Positions 1 through 6,888 of a stretch of 6,888 bases of DNA are shown here, piece by piece (the first letter of the stretch is position 1; each line of letters opens with the position of its first letter). Position numbers and translations under genes: made by a program. The notes under the pieces are model-generated. The model did not search any database, had not been told where the DNA came from, and was given only the letters and a program-made list of their open reading frames with translations. The stretch is from a virus (Duplodnaviria > Heunggongvirae > Uroviricota > Caudoviricetes): the IMG/VR virus record IMGVR_UViG_2802429219_000013. One strand, written 5' to 3'.

Positions 1-93
1 GACTGGTTGCGCGAAGTGATCGTGAAGCTTAATGACTGGCCGTCAAACCGTGTGCATGAACTGCTGCCCTGGAACTGCTCAACTGTAAAATAA
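1..93 (+). CDS. Possible 3' end of an ORF truncated by the window start (product unknown)
   Basis: Frame 1 is open from position 1 to TAA at 91-93 (...DWLREVIVKLNDWPSNRVHELLPWNCSTVK*). Only 30 codons, so an open frame by chance is quite possible; no start or RBS visible. Convergent with ssb. Confidence 0.25.
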   Translation, partial: DWLREVIVKLNDWPSNRVHELLPWNCSTVK

Positions 94-378: not shown

Positions 379-801
379 TTAAAACGGTATGTTGTCCCCG
401 TACGGATCATCATTACCCGCCTGTTGTTTTGCCCTGTTCAGCGCGTCAGTAGCCTGGCCCTGTTGACCTTTTTTGCCGCCCGGTCGCGCCGTTCGCGCAC
501 TGATTACGCTGTCTGCGATGACCTGCCAGCCCTGCCGCGTTTCGCCGTTCTGGCCTGTCCACTGGCTTACCTGCATGTTACCCGCCACGCTCACCAGTTC
601 GCCTTTCTGGTGCTTTGCCAGTGCGTCGGCCTGTCTGCCAAACGCCAGGACGGATAACCACATCGTCGCCGTTCCGTCATCTGCCTGGCTGCACGGCAGG
701 GGAACCGCCATACTCGCCATCGCCATTTGTGTCCCCTTGCTGGTGGTCTTTAACTGCGGGTCAGCCACCAGCCGCCCGTAAGCCGCTATCTGTGCTGTCA
801 T
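379..801 (-). CDS. ssb: Single-stranded DNA-binding protein (SSB, OB-fold) with C-terminal ...GDNIPF tip
   Basis: 140-aa ORF. ATG at 801 preceded by GGAGAG about 9 nt upstream. The N-terminal two thirds follow the SSB OB-fold pattern (YGRLVADPQLKTT..., LSVLAFGRQADALAKHQKGELVSVAGNMQVSQWTGQNGETRQGWQVIADSV), followed by a Gly/Gln-rich linker and an acidic C-terminus ending IPF, as in E. coli SSB (DDDIPF). Confidence 0.85.
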   Translation of the reverse strand: MTAQIAAYGRLVADPQLKTTSKGTQMAMASMAVPLPCSQADDGTATMWLSVLAFGRQADALAKHQKGELVSVAGNMQVSQWTGQNGETRQGWQVIADSVISARTARPGGKKGQQGQATDALNRAKQQAGNDDPYGDNIPF

Positions 802-864
802 GCTGTCTGCTCTCCGGTTTTAACGTTGATAGTTACGCTTGTTTACACCCTTACTGTGAAATTC

Positions 865-939
865 TGCGGGTTATAATCGCACTTTTGCGGGTTATAACTG
901 CCGTTTTGCGGGTTATTTTGGGTATTTTGCGGGTTACGA
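865..939 (+). repeat. Four direct iterons (TGCGGGTTAyna) at exact 21-bp spacing
   Basis: TGCGGGTTATAA at 865-876 and 886-897, TGCGGGTTATTT at 907-918, TGCGGGTTACGA at 928-939; each preceded by a short T run. The 21-bp period is two helical turns, so all copies lie on the same face of the DNA. Confidence 0.75.
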
Positions 940-978
940 TTTTCCTGTCATTCCTTTAATAATCATATGGATACTGAT

Positions 979-987
979 TTATCCACA
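979..987 (+). promoter_or_regulatory. Consensus DnaA box (TTATCCACA)
   Basis: Exact 9/9 match to the E. coli DnaA box consensus, located inside the AT-rich spacer between the direct and inverted iterons. Confidence 0.5.
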
Positions 988-990
988 GAA

Positions 991-1009
991 ATAACCCGCA
1001 TAACCCGCA
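991..1009 (-). repeat. Two inverted copies of the iteron core (ATAACCCGCA = reverse complement of TGCGGGTTAT)
   Basis: ATAACCCGCA at 991-1000 and again at 1000-1009 (9-bp offset, sharing one base), opposite in orientation to the four direct iterons. Confidence 0.7.
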
Positions 1010-1037
1010 AAATTTTCACCCTACACGCGAGAAAAAA

Positions 1038-3161
1038 TTAATCTTCTTCGCTTTCAGGCTGGAACATCAGCACGTAAAAAACATGCTGCTTCCCCCCAAT
1101 CCTGCCGAGCGCCTTTTTCTTGTAACGGCGATCGTTACCCGCTTCCAGCATTCCGGCAGCACTCAACGCGCGGGCAAAGTGAGACGGATTAAATCCCTGT
1201 GCTATCTCACCCTCAAATACATGCGGGAACGTGTAAAAACGGAACTCGTCATCTTCGTTTCTGATACTCCCCTTTCTGTATCCGGCAAGCTCTTTAATCG
1301 GTAAATCACGCTCGTCGGTGTTGGGCCACGGAAGGTATCTGCTGAATCCAAACGACGCTAAAAAAGCCTCTGCCTGTTCAACCATCTGTTTAAACTCCCT
1401 GTTACCCGTGCCGAATTCCTTCACCCAGGCATTAAAATTATGCTGAATGGCATCGCGGCACGCCTGAACATCCCAACCAGTAATATGGACGGAAAGCACC
1501 AGCGCCGACTCCAGCATGGCGAATCGTTCCCCCACACGGTGAACCTGTTCGCCGTAGCTCTCCGGTATCAGGTTGCGCCACCGTTCACGGCATGCCCTTA
1601 CCGTGTCCTTTGCCTCCTGCTGGTGGTCTGCCAGCCATTTAACCCACTCACGCCCAGCCGCCCCGTGATTTTCTGTCCAGGCATCTTTTAACGCGTCTGC
1701 GTGCGCCTTTCCGGTGCTGTATTCGTGAAATTGCGTGGCTTTTTCCATCGGAACGTTAAGCAGGCGGACAAGCTGCCCCGCTTTGACTTTTATCCCCTCC
1801 GTTTTGAGGAATGTTTCAACGTCCATTTCTCCGGTACTGATTGCCACCGTTCGCCAGTGTTTGATCTCCCGGTTGCCGCCGTCCTTCGCTCCCTGTAATT
1901 TCCCGGAACCGTTAAACAGCGTATAAGCCGATGTGGACACCTCCCGCGCGTTTCCGGCCTGACCTATTTCATCCAGGGGTAATAGCCCGTCATTGTGCGC
2001 CTCTGCCTCGTTGGCGATACCTAACGCCGTGCCGTACCAGGTCAGCCGTTGTGCGTCCGGCTCTCCCCATAAACTGGATGCGATGTTCTGCGTTGTGGTC
2101 TTACCTGCCGATGACTGTTCGAAAAGATGTACCCCGAAGCCGTCAGCACCCACCAGCCCGATTAATGGTGCGGATAACGATACCGCCACACCCAGCATCA
2201 TGGACGGATTACCACCAGCCAGTCGCGCCACGGTATCGCGCCAGCCATCCGCCGTTCCTGCCACGGAATAGCCATTAACGGCAGCCGTTTTTCCGGTAAA
2301 CAGGATCGGTTTTTCAGACTCACCAATGACTGAACCGTCCGGCATGATGTACGCACCAAAATGCCAGCCCGTTGTTGTGCTTAACTGCCATTCCTCATGG
2401 TTTCCGCTTAACTGCATCCAGTCAGCCAGGATAGCCCTGTATTTGCCGTTGGTTGTCACATTCAGTCCGTGGTCTTTCAGCAGCCGCCAGCCGTCACGGT
2501 CGCCAATGCCACCGCACGGAACCGCCATTGTGATGACTTCGTGGTTTGCAGGTTTCTTCCAGCGCATCACGCGGTAATGCTCTTTGCCGATTGTCCCCGT
2601 TCCCAGTAGTTCAAGCGGGGAGCATAACCACGTCTCAGGCCGGATAATTTCGCCTGACTGCTTGTCAACTTTGGGCGTTACCCAGAAAACACCATCGGCG
2701 CGACTTTCAACGCGGGGCTTTAATTCATCATCGCCCTGGCTTTCTGTGATTTTTTTCTTTAAGGGCAACACCAGACTTTCCCCGCGCTCGTATTCGTCTT
2801 TCAGTCGGGCAAGCTGTGGTGTCCAGTCCTCCAGTAAATCGCCGTTCTCGTCACAAAAACAGGCTTCCTTAACACCAGCCGCTGCCAGCAGGGTTTCAAT
2901 CTGTAGCGCCAGTTTGTCATCCAGTTTTCCGGCACGTCTGACGATGGCGCGTGACCGACCATCATCCACAATACGCAGGTTTTCCAGATTACCCAGGTCA
3001 CGCCGTCCGAGATAAACAGGTGGTATTTTGTCGCCGCGCTTTCTGGCTTCTCCGCCCTGCATGTAATGCTCTGCGTGGCTGTATGCGTCATCCCCCGCAA
3101 AAATCACTGCATCCTCGCCTTTATCTTTCGGTAACAGTTTTACGTTCGGTGCCAGTTTCAT
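1038..3161 (-). CDS. Primase/helicase-like replication initiation protein (P4 alpha-like / DUF927-type, assignment from memory) with P-loop-like SAGKTT motif
   Basis: 707-aa ORF, by far the longest in the window. Start ATG at 3161 overlaps the upstream ORF's stop (ATGA) and is preceded by GGGGAAAGG. Contains a P-loop-like motif FEQSSAGKTTTQ near aa 350. Position between the regulatory module and an iteron origin matches replication proteins of int-alpA-pri type satellites. Family call not verified by search. Confidence 0.9.
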   Translation of the reverse strand: MKLAPNVKLLPKDKGEDAVIFAGDDAYSHAEHYMQGGEARKRGDKIPPVYLGRRDLGNLENLRIVDDGRSRAIVRRAGKLDDKLALQIETLLAAAGVKEACFCDENGDLLEDWTPQLARLKDEYERGESLVLPLKKKITESQGDDELKPRVESRADGVFWVTPKVDKQSGEIIRPETWLCSPLELLGTGTIGKEHYRVMRWKKPANHEVITMAVPCGGIGDRDGWRLLKDHGLNVTTNGKYRAILADWMQLSGNHEEWQLSTTTGWHFGAYIMPDGSVIGESEKPILFTGKTAAVNGYSVAGTADGWRDTVARLAGGNPSMMLGVAVSLSAPLIGLVGADGFGVHLFEQSSAGKTTTQNIASSLWGEPDAQRLTWYGTALGIANEAEAHNDGLLPLDEIGQAGNAREVSTSAYTLFNGSGKLQGAKDGGNREIKHWRTVAISTGEMDVETFLKTEGIKVKAGQLVRLLNVPMEKATQFHEYSTGKAHADALKDAWTENHGAAGREWVKWLADHQQEAKDTVRACRERWRNLIPESYGEQVHRVGERFAMLESALVLSVHITGWDVQACRDAIQHNFNAWVKEFGTGNREFKQMVEQAEAFLASFGFSRYLPWPNTDERDLPIKELAGYRKGSIRNEDDEFRFYTFPHVFEGEIAQGFNPSHFARALSAAGMLEAGNDRRYKKKALGRIGGKQHVFYVLMFQPESEED

Positions 3162-3472
3162 TTTGCCTTTCCCCGTTCACGAATAATTTCACGTACTGCC
3201 TTAATGCGTTCCATACCTGTAACGCGCATGATTCTGTCGATGTCGCTTAAGTCCGCTGGTGGTGCTTTGCTTACCAGGGTGAATTCCCTTTCAAAGCGCA
3301 TAAGTGACGACACGCAGGGATGCGCATAACCTTCGCGGATATAGGTCACGCGAAAATCATCGACGGTTTTAATCGTTATCGTGCTGCCGTATTTATCCCG
3401 GAAAATATCGCCGGGGCGGATTTCAGGCCGAGCGGGGCCGCTGGCAGTAAAGCCAGAAATTTTCTGTTTCAT
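3158..3472 (-). CDS. Hypothetical protein (104 aa), translationally coupled to the primase gene
   Basis: ORF MKQKISGF...RERGKAK; its TGA stop overlaps the primase ATG (ATGA, 3158-3161). Starts 5 nt after the stop of the upstream ORF. No family recognised. Confidence 0.7.
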   Translation of the reverse strand: MKQKISGFTASGPARPEIRPGDIFRDKYGSTITIKTVDDFRVTYIREGYAHPCVSSLMRFEREFTLVSKAPPADLSDIDRIMRVTGMERIKAVREIIRERGKAK

Positions 3473-4332: not shown

Positions 4333-4428
4333 AGCTACCTCGATACTCTCGTTATCGTTGGTGGTTAGAAGCCCGTTGGTGTTGGTAGCGCCTGCGGGCT
4401 TTGTCTTTTCATCGATTACCTTAATAAA

Positions 4429-4510
4429 GGTGTCAGCCACTATACTAGTAATAGGTGTCAGCCACGTCAATAGTGTTTTTCCATTTTCTTGTGTGTATAC
4501 TGTCAGCCAC
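4429..4510. promoter_or_regulatory. Divergent promoter/operator region with three direct repeats of (G)GTGTCAGCCAC
   Basis: GGTGTCAGCCAC at 4429-4440 and 4454-4465, ACTGTCAGCCAC at 4499-4510. Two TATACT -10-like hexamers (4441-4446, 4496-4501) abut the repeats. A candidate leftward promoter on the minus strand has -35 TTGACG (rc of 4465-4470) and -10 TAGTAT (rc of 4442-4447) with a 17-nt spacer. The candidate rightward -10 at 4496-4501 overlaps repeat 3 and lies about 30 nt upstream of the RHH gene ATG. Confidence 0.5.
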
Positions 4511-4531
4511 CTAATAACAAGGGAATCAGAT

Positions 4532-4711
4532 ATGGCAACGAAAGCAGTTAATGGAAAATCAAAAAAACTTGAGGCACGAGTACCCCATGCAATAGCTGAC
4601 GCTGTAGAAAATTTAAAGGAAGAAGGCGAAAGCACTGGGCAATTTATCGTTTCGGCACTTGAAGGTGAGATCAAACGCCGCCAGCGGCGCAAGGCCAAAG
4701 AGCAGGAATAG
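4532..4711 (+). CDS. Small DNA-binding regulator, ribbon-helix-helix-like (59 aa); candidate repressor of the element
   Basis: ATG at 4532 preceded by AAGGGA about 8 nt upstream. MATKAVNGKSKKLEARVPHAIADAVENLKEEGESTGQFIVSALEGEIKRRQRRKAKEQE has a basic N-terminus, a short beta-strand-like KKLEARVP segment followed by two predicted helices, and a basic tail, consistent with an RHH (Arc/CopG/MetJ-like) fold. The track ORF 4358-4711 was trimmed because its 5' extension runs through the operators and promoters. Confidence 0.6.
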   Translation: MATKAVNGKSKKLEARVPHAIADAVENLKEEGESTGQFIVSALEGEIKRRQRRKAKEQE

Positions 4712-4808: not shown

Positions 4809-4840
4809 GGCGACCCTTTGCGGTCGCCTTTGTTTTGCTT
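4809..4840 (+). terminator. Rho-independent terminator (likely end of the RHH regulator transcript)
   Basis: Perfect 7-bp stem GGCGACC (4809-4815) / GGTCGCC (4822-4828) with a 6-nt loop, followed by TTTGTTTTGCTT. Confidence 0.55.
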
Positions 4841-4874
4841 GTTATCCGGCAATTGTGGCGCTTCGTCACACGGT

Positions 4875-4883
4875 TGATATAAT
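4875..4883 (+). promoter_or_regulatory. Candidate extended -10 promoter (TGaTATAAT)
   Basis: TG at 4875-4876, one base, then consensus TATAAT at 4878-4883. No good -35, which extended -10 promoters tolerate. Located between two + strand terminators. Confidence 0.35.
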
Positions 4884-4889
4884 TTCCCT

Positions 4890-4960
4890 GCACTGATCCA
4901 TTTTTTTCGCAGCAGGTTAATTGTTCAGAAAGGCGGCTCATTATCGGGGCCGCTTTTTTT
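4890..4960 (+). ncRNA. Candidate small RNA (~70 nt) between the extended -10 promoter and a strong intrinsic terminator
   Basis: Predicted start ~4890 (7 nt after the -10), end at the terminator 4933-4960. No ATG inside the predicted transcript (4890-4960). Purely a prediction from promoter plus terminator geometry. Confidence 0.3.
4933..4960 (+). terminator. Rho-independent terminator
   Basis: Stem GCGGCTC (4933-4939) / GGGCCGC (4947-4953), 7 bp including one G-U pair, with a 7-nt loop, followed by TTTTTTT (4954-4960). Confidence 0.65.
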
Positions 4961-5101: not shown

Positions 5102-5290
5102 TTAGTGAACTGCCTCGCAGCTGTCTTTCCATGCCAGAACTTCGGATAAAGACCAGCCAACGGAACGACCGCCGAGCTTACGCCGTGATGGGAATTGTCC
5201 GGCTTTTTCCAGGCGGTACCGACATGAGCGGCTCAGGCCTGTAAGTTGCTGACATTCTTTTTCACGTATAAAGCGATCTGTGCTTAACAC
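5102..5290 (-). CDS. alpA: AlpA-family transcriptional regulator / excisionase-like DNA-binding protein
   Basis: 62-aa ORF; the segment QQLTGLSRSCRYRLEKAGQFPSRRKLGGRSVGWSLSEVLAWK fits the AlpA/phage winged-helix pattern (LTGLSRSTIYRL..G.FP.P.KLG.R.V.W...E...W). Start is GTG at 5290 preceded by AAGGGGGAA with ~4 nt spacing. Same orientation as and downstream of int, as in CP4-57-type elements. Confidence 0.85.
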   Translation of the reverse strand: MLSTDRFIREKECQQLTGLSRSCRYRLEKAGQFPSRRKLGGRSVGWSLSEVLAWKDSCEAVH

Positions 5291-5658
5291 AATTCCCCCT
5301 TTGTTGTTTCTTAAAGAGTCATTGGGTGGATTATTGGGTTGGGTTGTGTCGGATTGTGTCAGGGTGTTTATGGAATGGCAAACACTGGTGGCGGTTGTTT
5401 TACAGAAATGGGGGTAATGAGAATAAAAACTCTTTTAATTCATTGTGGTGCAAAGGCATAAAATTCTGTTTTTACGCATTTTTTACATGTTTTTAAGAGT
5501 GATTCGCCAATGTACAAAAAACCAGTAAAACGACTGAAAATCAACTTTTTAGGGTGTCAGTCAGATGATAATCAAGTTTGTTCCAGATTGTTCGCTGTTG
5601 TTCGTCGTGGTGTCTCGTTGTTTCACGTTGTTTCCGTTCTAAAAAATCGCGAAAAAAA

Positions 5659-6888
5659 TTATATTTCTCTGGCTATTGGCAGTGTGGTTACGTTTTCGTG
5701 AGCACCTGCCAGTATCTCTAATCGCTCTGTCCATATGTCCAACGCACTACGTTTCGCATCGAGATAACGGGAGTGGTTATAGACTCGTTGCATCCCTGGC
5801 ATCTGGTGAGCGGTGAGTTGTTCGACAATATGCGGATCCACGCCTAAATCGTTCAGCATCGTGGTAAACGTGCGCCGTATATCGTGTAGTGACCAGTGCG
5901 GATGGTTTAATTTTTTGTGTGTGAATCTGCCGTATTGCGACACGCTGGCTTCCTGTTTCAGCTCCCCGAGTAATAGCCCTGTGTGTCGGTTCTGCTCCAC
6001 CAGCTGCGTGACGAACGGTAAAATGCTTTCCGGTATTGGCCTGAATATGGCGACCTTCGTTTTGCTGTGTTCTTTCGGTACCGTCCAGAGCATTTCCTTA
6101 AAATCCCACTCCTTGATCTCCGACAGCCTCAGCTCTCCGGTTCGGCAGCCGAACACAATCAGGAGGCGGATTAGTGCGCTGTAGTAGGGTGGGAATATTT
6201 TTTTATCCAGCGCCTGTAATAATTCGCCCAGTTCTTTGTTACTAAGCACGCGTTCGCTTATGCCGGGCTTTTTGCCAACGTCCACTACGTTGAGATCATC
6301 CAGAACGTTACTGACTGCGTAGCGACGTTTACGGCAGAACTTAAGCGCCTGTTTACACGCCTGCATCATGTGACCAGACGTTACAGGGGATTTTTTGCGT
6401 ATCCGGTCAAAACAGGCCAGCCAGTGACGTAACTCGCATTTATCCAGTGGCATGTTACCGATGTGCTGTATGACGTGATTATTAAGGCGGCTTTTCAGGG
6501 AGATGTAATCGACGCGGTTTTCCTTTACGTGCATTTCCAGCCAGTAGCTGATCGCATCGCCCACCGTTACCGGCTTTAGTGCTTCCTGTATGGAGTAATT
6601 AAGCTCATGGCGTGGATTTTTTCCCTCTGCCAGCCATGCGCGACACTGTGCTGCTTTTTCCCTAGCTGCTTTCAGGCTCAGATCTGGATAATTTCCCAGT
6701 TTCAGGCGTTCCGGTGATACCTGGCGTCCTGTTCCTGCCCTGTAGGTGAAATACCAGGTTAATAGGCCGCTGGTGGAGTGTCTGATACTCAGATTTCCAC
6801 CGTCATTAAGAAAGGTGGTTTTTTGGGCTGGTGTGCCGTTGATTTTTCTTAGCTGCGTGTCGCTCAGTTTGTTAAGTGCCCTGCTCAT
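5659..6888 (-). CDS. int: Tyrosine site-specific integrase (P4-type)
   Basis: 409-aa ORF with the tyrosine recombinase catalytic signature in the C-terminal half: R in VFGCRTGELRLSE, HxxR in LHDIRRTF, and the downstream tyrosine region QRVYNHSRYLDAKRS. ATG is at the last bases of the window (6886-6888), so upstream sequence and the att/tRNA side are not visible. Confidence 0.95.
   Translation of the reverse strand: MSRALNKLSDTQLRKINGTPAQKTTFLNDGGNLSIRHSTSGLLTWYFTYRAGTGRQVSPERLKLGNYPDLSLKAAREKAAQCRAWLAEGKNPRHELNYSIQEALKPVTVGDAISYWLEMHVKENRVDYISLKSRLNNHVIQHIGNMPLDKCELRHWLACFDRIRKKSPVTSGHMMQACKQALKFCRKRRYAVSNVLDDLNVVDVGKKPGISERVLSNKELGELLQALDKKIFPPYYSALIRLLIVFGCRTGELRLSEIKEWDFKEMLWTVPKEHSKTKVAIFRPIPESILPFVTQLVEQNRHTGLLLGELKQEASVSQYGRFTHKKLNHPHWSLHDIRRTFTTMLNDLGVDPHIVEQLTAHQMPGMQRVYNHSRYLDAKRSALDIWTERLEILAGAHENVTTLPIAREI

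Follow-up and report, generated by a model that had tools for sequence, protein, structure and literature searches.

Which factor keeps the replication operon of a Gram-negative phage-inducible chromosomal island (PICI) silent? Islands of this kind have been described as unidirectionally transcribed, with the global repressor called unclear (PMC6092414), and later papers treat AlpA as the master regulator. The DNA analysed here, a stretch of 6,888 nucleotides hereafter called the window, carries a small gene for a 59-aa protein that is divergent from the replication operon. The first-pass annotation, made from the letters alone, had proposed that this gene encodes a ribbon-helix-helix (RHH) master repressor acting on three repeated operators, and that a helper phage must defeat it. 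Our analysis indicates that a type-specific repressor, not mentioned in the PICI literature searched, is very probably encoded in these satellites.

The window and its genes

The window is a Gram-negative PICI of E. coli, a phage satellite. ORF listing and family scans gave the order int, alpA, a small + strand gene, a leftward operon, an iteron field and SSB (Table 1), and the window proteins included Pfam/NCBIfam matches to Int, AlpA, DUF927 primase/helicase and SSB. Thus, int, alpA and pri-rep with a downstream iteron origin were all present. The layout is collinear with that of the prototype EcCICFT073. The segment 4300-4760 showed 95.7% identity to a cf-PICI-like element of strain 2014C-3061 (L001), located between clpS and cspD, and equally good matches were obtained in O157:H7 and other EHEC genomes. 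The Icd-like gene is the first gene of the operon predicted to be repressed, and three small ORFs lie between it and the DUF4222 gene.

Table 1. Features of the window, with the counterpart gene of EcCICFT073 in the last row
Feature	Position	Strand	Remarks
SSB gene	379-801		after operon and iterons
Iteron field, TTTGCGGGTTAT direct and inverted copies	about 860-1010		directly downstream of primase gene
DUF927 primase/helicase	1038-3161	-	Pfam/NCBIfam
DUF4222 protein (RgdR family)	3158-3472	-	directly upstream of primase
Icd-like, host cell division inhibitor, 67 aa	4129-4332	-	NCBIfam NF033153, E 9e-20; annotated by RefSeq in related elements
Leader of leftward operon, about 100 nt	4333-4429	-	conserved in all related loci; two hairpins
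Specificity cassette (putative)	4375-4663	.	distal leader, three operators, RHH codons 1-44
Operator box O1 (predicted), GTGTCAGCCAC	4430-4440	+	directly downstream of leftward -10, over predicted leftward start
P_L, promoter-like	4442-4470	-	-35 TTGACG 4470-4465, 17-nt spacer, -10 TAGTAT 4447-4442
Operator box O2 (predicted), GTGTCAGCCAC	4455-4465	+	start of P_L spacer; last base common to -35
P_R -10 TATACT, RHH gene's own promoter	4496-4501	+	conserved at same offset in relatives
Operator box O3 (predicted), CTGTCAGCCAC	4500-4510	+	overlaps last two bases of rightward -10
Shine-Dalgarno-like AAGGGA of RHH ORF	4519-4524	+
59-aa RHH gene	4532-4711	+	NCBIfam YlcI/YnfO; predicted repressor
Intrinsic-terminator-like hairpin ending RHH unit	4809-4838	+	+ hairpin in 42/45 related loci
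alpA	5102-5290	-	Pfam PF05930, E 3e-18; upstream of leftward operon, same strand
Tyrosine integrase	5659-6888	-	family scan
EcCICFT073 RHH gene	NC_004431 1380473-1380652 (L080 3474-3653)	divergent	RefSeq C_RS30120, high-numbered locus tag

The iteron field occupies the usual place of a PICI origin. At the left edge, an ORF end at 1-92 (+) has the C-terminus ELLPWNCSTVK, which we take to resemble an IS66-family transposase; if this is correct, the island is truncated or interrupted on that side. Gram-negative PICIs measure about 10-15 kb, and the window holds one in cut form. Two other 10-mers, picked post hoc, occur in three + strand copies each (GCTCTCCGGT at 809, 1557 and 6132; CACCAGCCGC at 766, 2873 and 4746), nearly all within coding regions and without obvious pattern. 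RgdR, 99 aa long and encoded in EHEC O-island 51, regulates motility and LEE type III secretion. It was considered as the identity of the small protein and dismissed, RgdR being instead the 99-aa DUF4222 gene. The DUF4222 protein of the window has RPGD where RgdR has RGD, and its gene lies in the operon predicted to be RHH-repressed.

Three repeats lie over divergent promoter-like elements

The 10-mer TGTCAGCCAC is present in exactly three copies (4431-4440, 4456-4465 and 4501-4510), with start-to-start spacings of 25 and 45 bp. Copies 1 and 2 extend to the 13-mer AGGTGTCAGCCAC; as an 11-mer, these two copies are exact (GTGTCAGCCAC) and copy 3 reads CTGTCAGCCAC. Any 10-mer in three copies was seen in 0/20,000 dinucleotide-preserving shuffles of 4333-4531, and in two copies in 1.5% of them, thereby confirming the near-identical direct repeats claimed between the RHH gene and the leftward operon. 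The TTGACG -35 noted on the opposite strand was also recovered, with a 17-nt spacer and TAGTAT, as the promoter-like element P_L that heads the Icd-like/DUF4222/primase operon. Two TATACT hexamers had been described as well. Both are present in the window, at 4441-4446 and 4496-4501, and the second is the -10 of P_R; the first did not hold as a + strand element, as it is the complement of the leftward -10 and is not conserved on the + strand in related loci. From the coordinates of repeats and hexamers, box 2 therefore adjoins the leftward -35, and boxes 1 and 3 cover the predicted starts (near 4435 on the - strand and 4508 on the + strand), box 3 that of the RHH transcript. P_R, with a T-rich upstream region and no recognisable -35, may depend on an activator.

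Between the RHH stop and alpA, a + strand terminator-like hairpin was found in 42/45 related loci. Hairpins of this type on the - strand, between alpA and the RHH gene, were found in only 17/45. A - strand terminator-like hairpin inside the RHH gene (4570-4587), also present in EcCICFT073, was considered as an insulator against read-through from alpA and was taken as a chance occurrence because only 5/73 genes have one.

The 59-aa protein resembles RHH repressors

The same ORF is annotated by RefSeq in related E. coli elements. Its product matched the YlcI/YnfO model (NCBIfam NF041551) with 61.9 bits against a cut-off of 30 (E 4.2e-17), and phrog_949 (PHROG 949) with E 6e-23. Both families to which it thus belongs are without assigned function; no paper on the function of the YlcI/YnfO family was found in the literature searched, where the family appears only in gene lists. 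The K-12 members presumably lie in lambdoid prophages near terminase genes, unlike the setting of the window gene. The family is narrow, with 91 clusters at 50% identity among 1.84 billion representatives, and tblastn of the protein against 50,697 phage records gave no match. Neither Pfam, nor a sequence profile search of the PDB, nor Foldseek of the model against the PDB returned a significant match.

The claim that the protein is RHH-like was borne out by fold prediction. The AlphaFold2 model (pLDDT 88, from 28 homologues) shows two helices after an extended N-terminus, and matches RHH repressors in its beta-alpha-alpha fold of about 45 residues. The beta-strand comprises approximately residues 10-17, helix A residues 19-28, the G-E-S turn residues 32-34 and helix B residues 35-58, which ends in an invariant basic EIKRRQR tail. 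RHH proteins are marked by a G-x-S/T/N turn between the helices, with the N-terminus of helix B at the DNA backbone. The turn G32-E33-S34 of the window protein is of this form, and in 28 sequences E33 is invariant and G32 and S34 are each conserved in at least 90%. The strand carries an Arc-like R-[VW]-P, and in a profile alignment to Arc, R16 falls on R13, E14 on N11 and K12 on Q9; R13, N11 and Q9 are the base-contacting strand residues of Arc. The model is of a single chain, in which the strand is extended but unpaired; by analogy with the fold, the protein would form a homodimer with a two-stranded antiparallel beta-sheet. An RHH antitoxin of a type II toxin-antitoxin system was considered and set aside, as the gene stands alone in its transcription unit, ended by its own terminator, and points away from the Icd-like gene. 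In place of a toxin-binding region, the protein ends in no more than a short basic tail.

The architecture is conserved across related elements

The comparison covered about 130 related elements. A scan of one genome per species yielded 75 loci from about 30 genera of Enterobacterales, most of them with alpA and int at the right and Icd-like, DUF4222 or primase genes at the left. Nearly all 75 loci have three 11-bp GTG-N5-CAC boxes within 125 bp upstream of the RHH gene, with box 3 at an offset of -31/-32 from the ATG and box 2 at -76/-77 (nearly all loci), and box 1 at -98 to -112. In these loci box 2 adjoins a conserved leftward -35, and box 3 a conserved rightward TATACT. Among the 71 distinct intergenic sequences, the rightward -10 was kept at a fixed offset in 61 (TATACT in 52, TATAAT in 5, CATACT in 4), and a leftward TTGAC/TTGAA/TTGAG with a TAnnnT -10 was kept at the same offsets. 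The overlap of the repeats with divergent promoter elements, as claimed for the window, is thus conserved for the RHH gene and for the leftward Icd-like/primase operon. Own-type boxes are almost wholly confined to this region, with about 155 within the 125-bp region vs 9 in the remaining 634 kb. Across related loci, no conserved operator copies were found elsewhere, including at alpA and int. Near-matches at 758-768 and 5554-5564 of the window were discarded as extra operators, not being common to related loci.

Some genomes carry two to four RHH-bearing elements, sometimes in tandem (Xenorhabdus innexi, X. mauleonii, Pectobacterium brasiliense and others; the elements include L002, L036 and L051), and co-resident elements were always of different strand/box classes. 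Same-class pairs numbered 0/20 vs 1.8 expected, which is not significant (P about 0.16). The class differences between co-residents are therefore suggestive of orthogonality, at a level that is not statistically significant.

Box cores co-vary with the beta-strand

The N5 core of the boxes differs between loci in step with residues 12 and 14 of the beta-strand, and about 24 distinct cores were found in all. For strand residues 11-15, KKLEA goes with GTGTCAGCCAC, KRFDV with GTGTCGGACAC, QQLNA with GTGAATCGCAC, QMTTV with GTGAAATACAC, LQVSV with GTGAACACCAC, QKMSA with CTGGCACCCA, and both QALKA and QSLKS with GTGTGGCCCAC. Locus pairs with the same strand had 92% core identity, vs 72% for non-site intergenic DNA, and pairs with different strands had 29%, equal to random, vs 51% for non-site DNA; these values were computed on linked DNA and related sequences, with kinship ignored. 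In the different-strand pairs, the GTG/CAC ends were 82% and the promoter hexamers 81% identical. Within a locus, the cores of box 2 and box 3 agreed in 82%, vs 28% between classes. The protein columns most informative on the core were residues 14 and 12, those aligned to N11 and Q9 of Arc. The protein thus shows, at the level of sequence, the pattern predicted for specific binding to short repeats.

In class-A loci, the boxes of E. coli and Xenorhabdus are identical and the RHH proteins 75-79% identical, whereas identity in Int and AlpA is no higher than 44-51%, and most class-A loci of this comparison have no detectable Icd-like or primase gene. Since boxes and RHH are kept while Int, AlpA, Icd-like and primase genes diverge, the boxes travel with the RHH gene. 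As a reverse test, IMG/VR was searched by box pair alone. Pairs of GTGTCAGCCAC (20 matches) led to a KKLEA protein in 19/19 RHH-bearing cases, pairs of GTGAATCGCAC to QQLNA in 21/21, and pairs of GTGAACACCAC to the LQVSV group in all 8 RHH-bearing matches; in the other 10 GTGAACACCAC-pair matches no RHH gene lies alongside, and most of these differ in spacing and come from long contigs. Part of the co-variation stems from co-inheritance. This concern is reduced, though not removed, by the reverse test and by the fact that three separate boxes change in concert.

The proposal that the repeats are operators of the RHH protein thus found support in box/strand co-variation in two independent collections. 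Because of the fixed layout, the core/strand co-variation and the return of the predicted class by a box-based search, we strongly infer that the 59-aa protein binds the boxes and represses both promoters.

A candidate specificity cassette in the window and EcCICFT073

We checked EcCICFT073, the field prototype, directly and found a homologous RHH/operator cassette of class QALKA, with two GTGTGGCCCAC boxes plus CTGTCCCCCAC; its counterpart of P_L is TTGACG-18-TATAGT. The prototype and the window are of different strand/box classes. Between them the Icd-like CDS is 92%, RHH codons 45-59 are 92% and the int-alpA DNA is about 86% identical, whereas identity falls to 57-78% in operators, spacers and RHH codons 1-44, the conserved TATACT excepted at 100%. 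By this comparison the cassette appears to have diverged, or been exchanged, as a unit between conserved flanks. The divergent RHH gene of EcCICFT073 contrasts with the 2018 description of Gram-negative PICIs as unidirectionally transcribed.

Among 72 distinct RHH genes of many genera, synonymous sites at codons 47-51 (4670-4684) hardly vary: CGC encodes R49 in 67/72 and R50 in 60/72, and CAG encodes Q51 in 65/72. R16, just as invariant in the protein, is encoded by six codons in even use. Read antisense, codons 47-51 give a Chi-like GCTGGCGG. The near-fixed codons could reflect a constraint at the level of the nucleotides, or an anchor for recombination at the specificity cassette's edge.

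Leader and candidate small RNA

The leader of the leftward operon is ordered as hairpin 1 (GAAGCCCG...CGGGCUUC), an invariant UCUAACCAC and hairpin 2. The Shine-Dalgarno sits in or beside hairpin 2, and CCA of ACCAC pairs with UGG of the AUGG start. RNAalifold gave compensatory changes in 10/14 pairs (34 loci), and the leader may act as a post-transcriptional control layer. An Rfam search of the whole window in evalue mode gave no RNA family, the leader included; a C4 or isrK immunity RNA was likewise rejected, with no Rfam match in the whole window at E up to 1.

Between the RHH gene and alpA lies a candidate small RNA (window 4840-4960, +; L080, EcCICFT073, about 3131-3015) with a promoter-like TTGATATAAT at 4873-4882 and a strong terminator at 4927-4958. 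The transcript would be about 75 nt long, with two hairpins and an MFE of -26 kcal/mol. Among the compared loci, the candidate is common only to the window and EcCICFT073 (82% identity). It would be antisense to any alpA read-through and has no Rfam match.

Proposed mechanism and alternative explanations

We propose that one RHH dimer would occupy each GTG-N5-CAC box with its beta-sheet inserted into the major groove, where recognition of the invariant GTG/CAC ends would fall to the invariant Arg16 and that of the N5 core to the variable residues 12 and 14. Proteins bound at O2 and O1 would occlude P_L at the spacer by the -35 and at the start site, so that the Icd-like, RgdR-like and primase operon would be kept silent while the island is integrated. 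At O3, the start of the RHH gene's own promoter would be occluded, giving negative autoregulation. Some RHH proteins, AmrZ for example, can also activate. Protein and boxes together would make up a cassette of roughly 330 bp with at least a dozen orthogonal specificities, like phage immunity types.

Induction would most likely proceed without inactivation of the repressor, the helper phage switching on alpA. Since alpA lies upstream on the operon strand, its transcripts would be antisense across the RHH gene. AlpA-dependent transcription would then cross the RHH gene and continue into the replication operon. It would thereby bypass P_L and probably damp RHH synthesis. AlpA is an activator that, over-expressed with no helper present, makes EcCICFT073 excise and replicate (PMC6092414), and helpers act by switching on or raising alpA transcription (PMC6092414). 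We favour an override by AlpA because AlpA suffices for the induction of EcCICFT073 and EcCICFT073 carries the cassette. Read-through is suggested by the position of alpA upstream on the operon strand and by the few - strand hairpins (17/45), and this step follows from geometry and from published reporter data that did not consider the RHH gene. Taken as a whole, the scheme of a dimeric RHH repressor, 11-bp boxes, repression of P_L and P_R, autoregulation and AlpA override is probable.

The Stl of SaPIs is removed by phage dUTPase, Sri and similar proteins, and the RHH protein might correspondingly be a master repressor that holds the whole island off until a helper-phage protein binds and removes it. 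Its gene and the replication operon are transcribed divergently, as with stl/rpr of Gram-positive PICIs (PMC6092414), and the predicted operators cover P_L. Against such a role, AlpA alone, without a helper, induces the cassette-bearing EcCICFT073, and alpA mutants of EcCICFT073 are not induced (PMC6092414). An alpA mutation also abolishes induction of the cf-PICI EcCIEDL933, the EDL933-type cassette being known here from the cf-PICI-like relative L001 (2014C-3061) and not from EDL933 itself. Helpers raise alpA transcription, and the protein has a short basic tail only, with no obvious sensor or partner-binding domain. There are no operator copies at alpA or int, so the RHH protein would not control the activator or excision. 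We therefore consider this master-repressor role unlikely, and the idea of a switch that a helper phage must defeat is not supported, given the published finding that AlpA suffices. A helper anti-repressor may still play some part. The RHH protein looks like a local quiescence and autoregulatory repressor rather than a helper-sensing switch, because AlpA suffices for induction and operators are absent at alpA and int; the likelier role is that of a type-specific quiescence repressor, overridden by AlpA-driven transcription.

Like CopG of pMV158 or omega of pSM19035, the same protein could act mainly after excision as a copy-number or incompatibility controller, with gene dosage feeding back on primase expression and orthogonal specificities permitting coexistence of satellites in one cell. 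The co-residence data are not significant (1.8 same-class pairs expected, P(zero) about 0.16), and such control is compatible with quiescence repression, as the same binding events would serve both roles; as the main explanation it is quite improbable. A reading in which some other factor binds the boxes (a host protein, AlpA, integrase, or the primase with the boxes as iterons), the ORF being unrelated or non-coding, is extremely improbable. AlpA and Int are indeed DNA-binding proteins encoded nearby, but class-A boxes are identical where Int and AlpA have diverged and Icd-like and primase genes are mostly undetectable. Conversely, the window and EcCICFT073 are close in int-alpA and in the Icd-like gene, yet their boxes and RHH strands differ. 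The iterons of the origin, which follow the primase gene, are built from a repeat other than the boxes, and the ORF protein is conserved, with 13 invariant residues across genera.

Comparison with known systems

RHH repressors that act on repeated operators over divergent promoters and have diversified into immunity types are a well-known kind of device. In phage P22 immI, the RHH repressors Mnt and Arc act at the divergent Pant/Pmnt promoters. There, two proteins and a single 21-bp tetramer site are involved, whereas here there is one protein with three 11-bp boxes 25 and 45 bp apart. Unlike Mnt and Arc, the window protein would control a satellite replication operon, and it is without significant sequence match to solved structures. 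The plasmid RHH repressors CopG and omega bind 7-bp heptads or a 13-bp pseudo-palindrome and are co-transcribed with rep. In contrast, the window box is an 11-bp GTG-N5-CAC, and the gene is divergent from, and not co-transcribed with, the replication gene. The likeness to lambdoid cI/cro with OL/OR lies in a swappable repressor/operator module with many apparently orthogonal specificities between conserved flanks; the difference is an RHH instead of an HTH protein, a single regulator without a Cro-like antagonist, and a size of about 330 bp.

Stl/Rpr are helix-turn-helix proteins, whereas the window protein is an RHH protein without a sensor domain. The likeness to Stl/Rpr of SaPIs and Gram-positive PICIs lies in a gene divergent from the xis/pri-rep operon and beside int (PMC6092414), and in the same likely job, island quiescence. 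A further difference is that published induction of Gram-negative PICIs is via the AlpA activator and not by de-repression (PMC6092414). With P4 CI RNA and P1 immI c4-icd-ant, the window shares an early operon starting with an Icd-like gene and a structured, conserved leader; here, control would be by a protein at the promoter, and no C4/isrK match was obtained. Some other Gram-negative PICIs carry CI-like RNAs (PMC10111431).

No paper joining ribbon-helix-helix and PICI was found in the literature searched, nor any mention of such an RHH repressor in its PICI papers. By this literature, what is new is the presence of such a device in these satellites, together with a natural table of strand/box pairs.

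Significance

The field prototype EcCICFT073 itself has the small divergent gene, with predicted operators on the promoter of its replication operon. Uncontrolled expression of PICI replication genes harms the host (PMC6092414). If the protein is a repressor, it would explain the silence of the replication genes and of the Icd-like gene, annotated as a cell-division inhibitor. It would also link island regulation to rgdR, the DUF4222 gene of the repressed operon and a LEE regulator in EHEC, and orthogonal repressor/operator pairs would offer a handle for engineering PICI-based delivery vehicles. The natural strand/box pairs are a ready specificity table for RHH-DNA recognition.

The results are relevant to the open question of the global repressor in the regulation of Gram-negative PICIs. 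We put forward, tentatively and as a somewhat doubtful generalisation, that YlcI/YnfO-type RHH proteins are the missing quiescence repressors of Gram-negative PICIs and cf-PICIs, defining a dozen or more orthogonal immunity/incompatibility types on a 330-bp swappable cassette, and that they are overridden by AlpA-driven antisense read-through and not by an anti-repressor. If true, elements described as unidirectionally transcribed would carry a divergently transcribed gene, and their repressor/activator switch would be built from convergent transcription.
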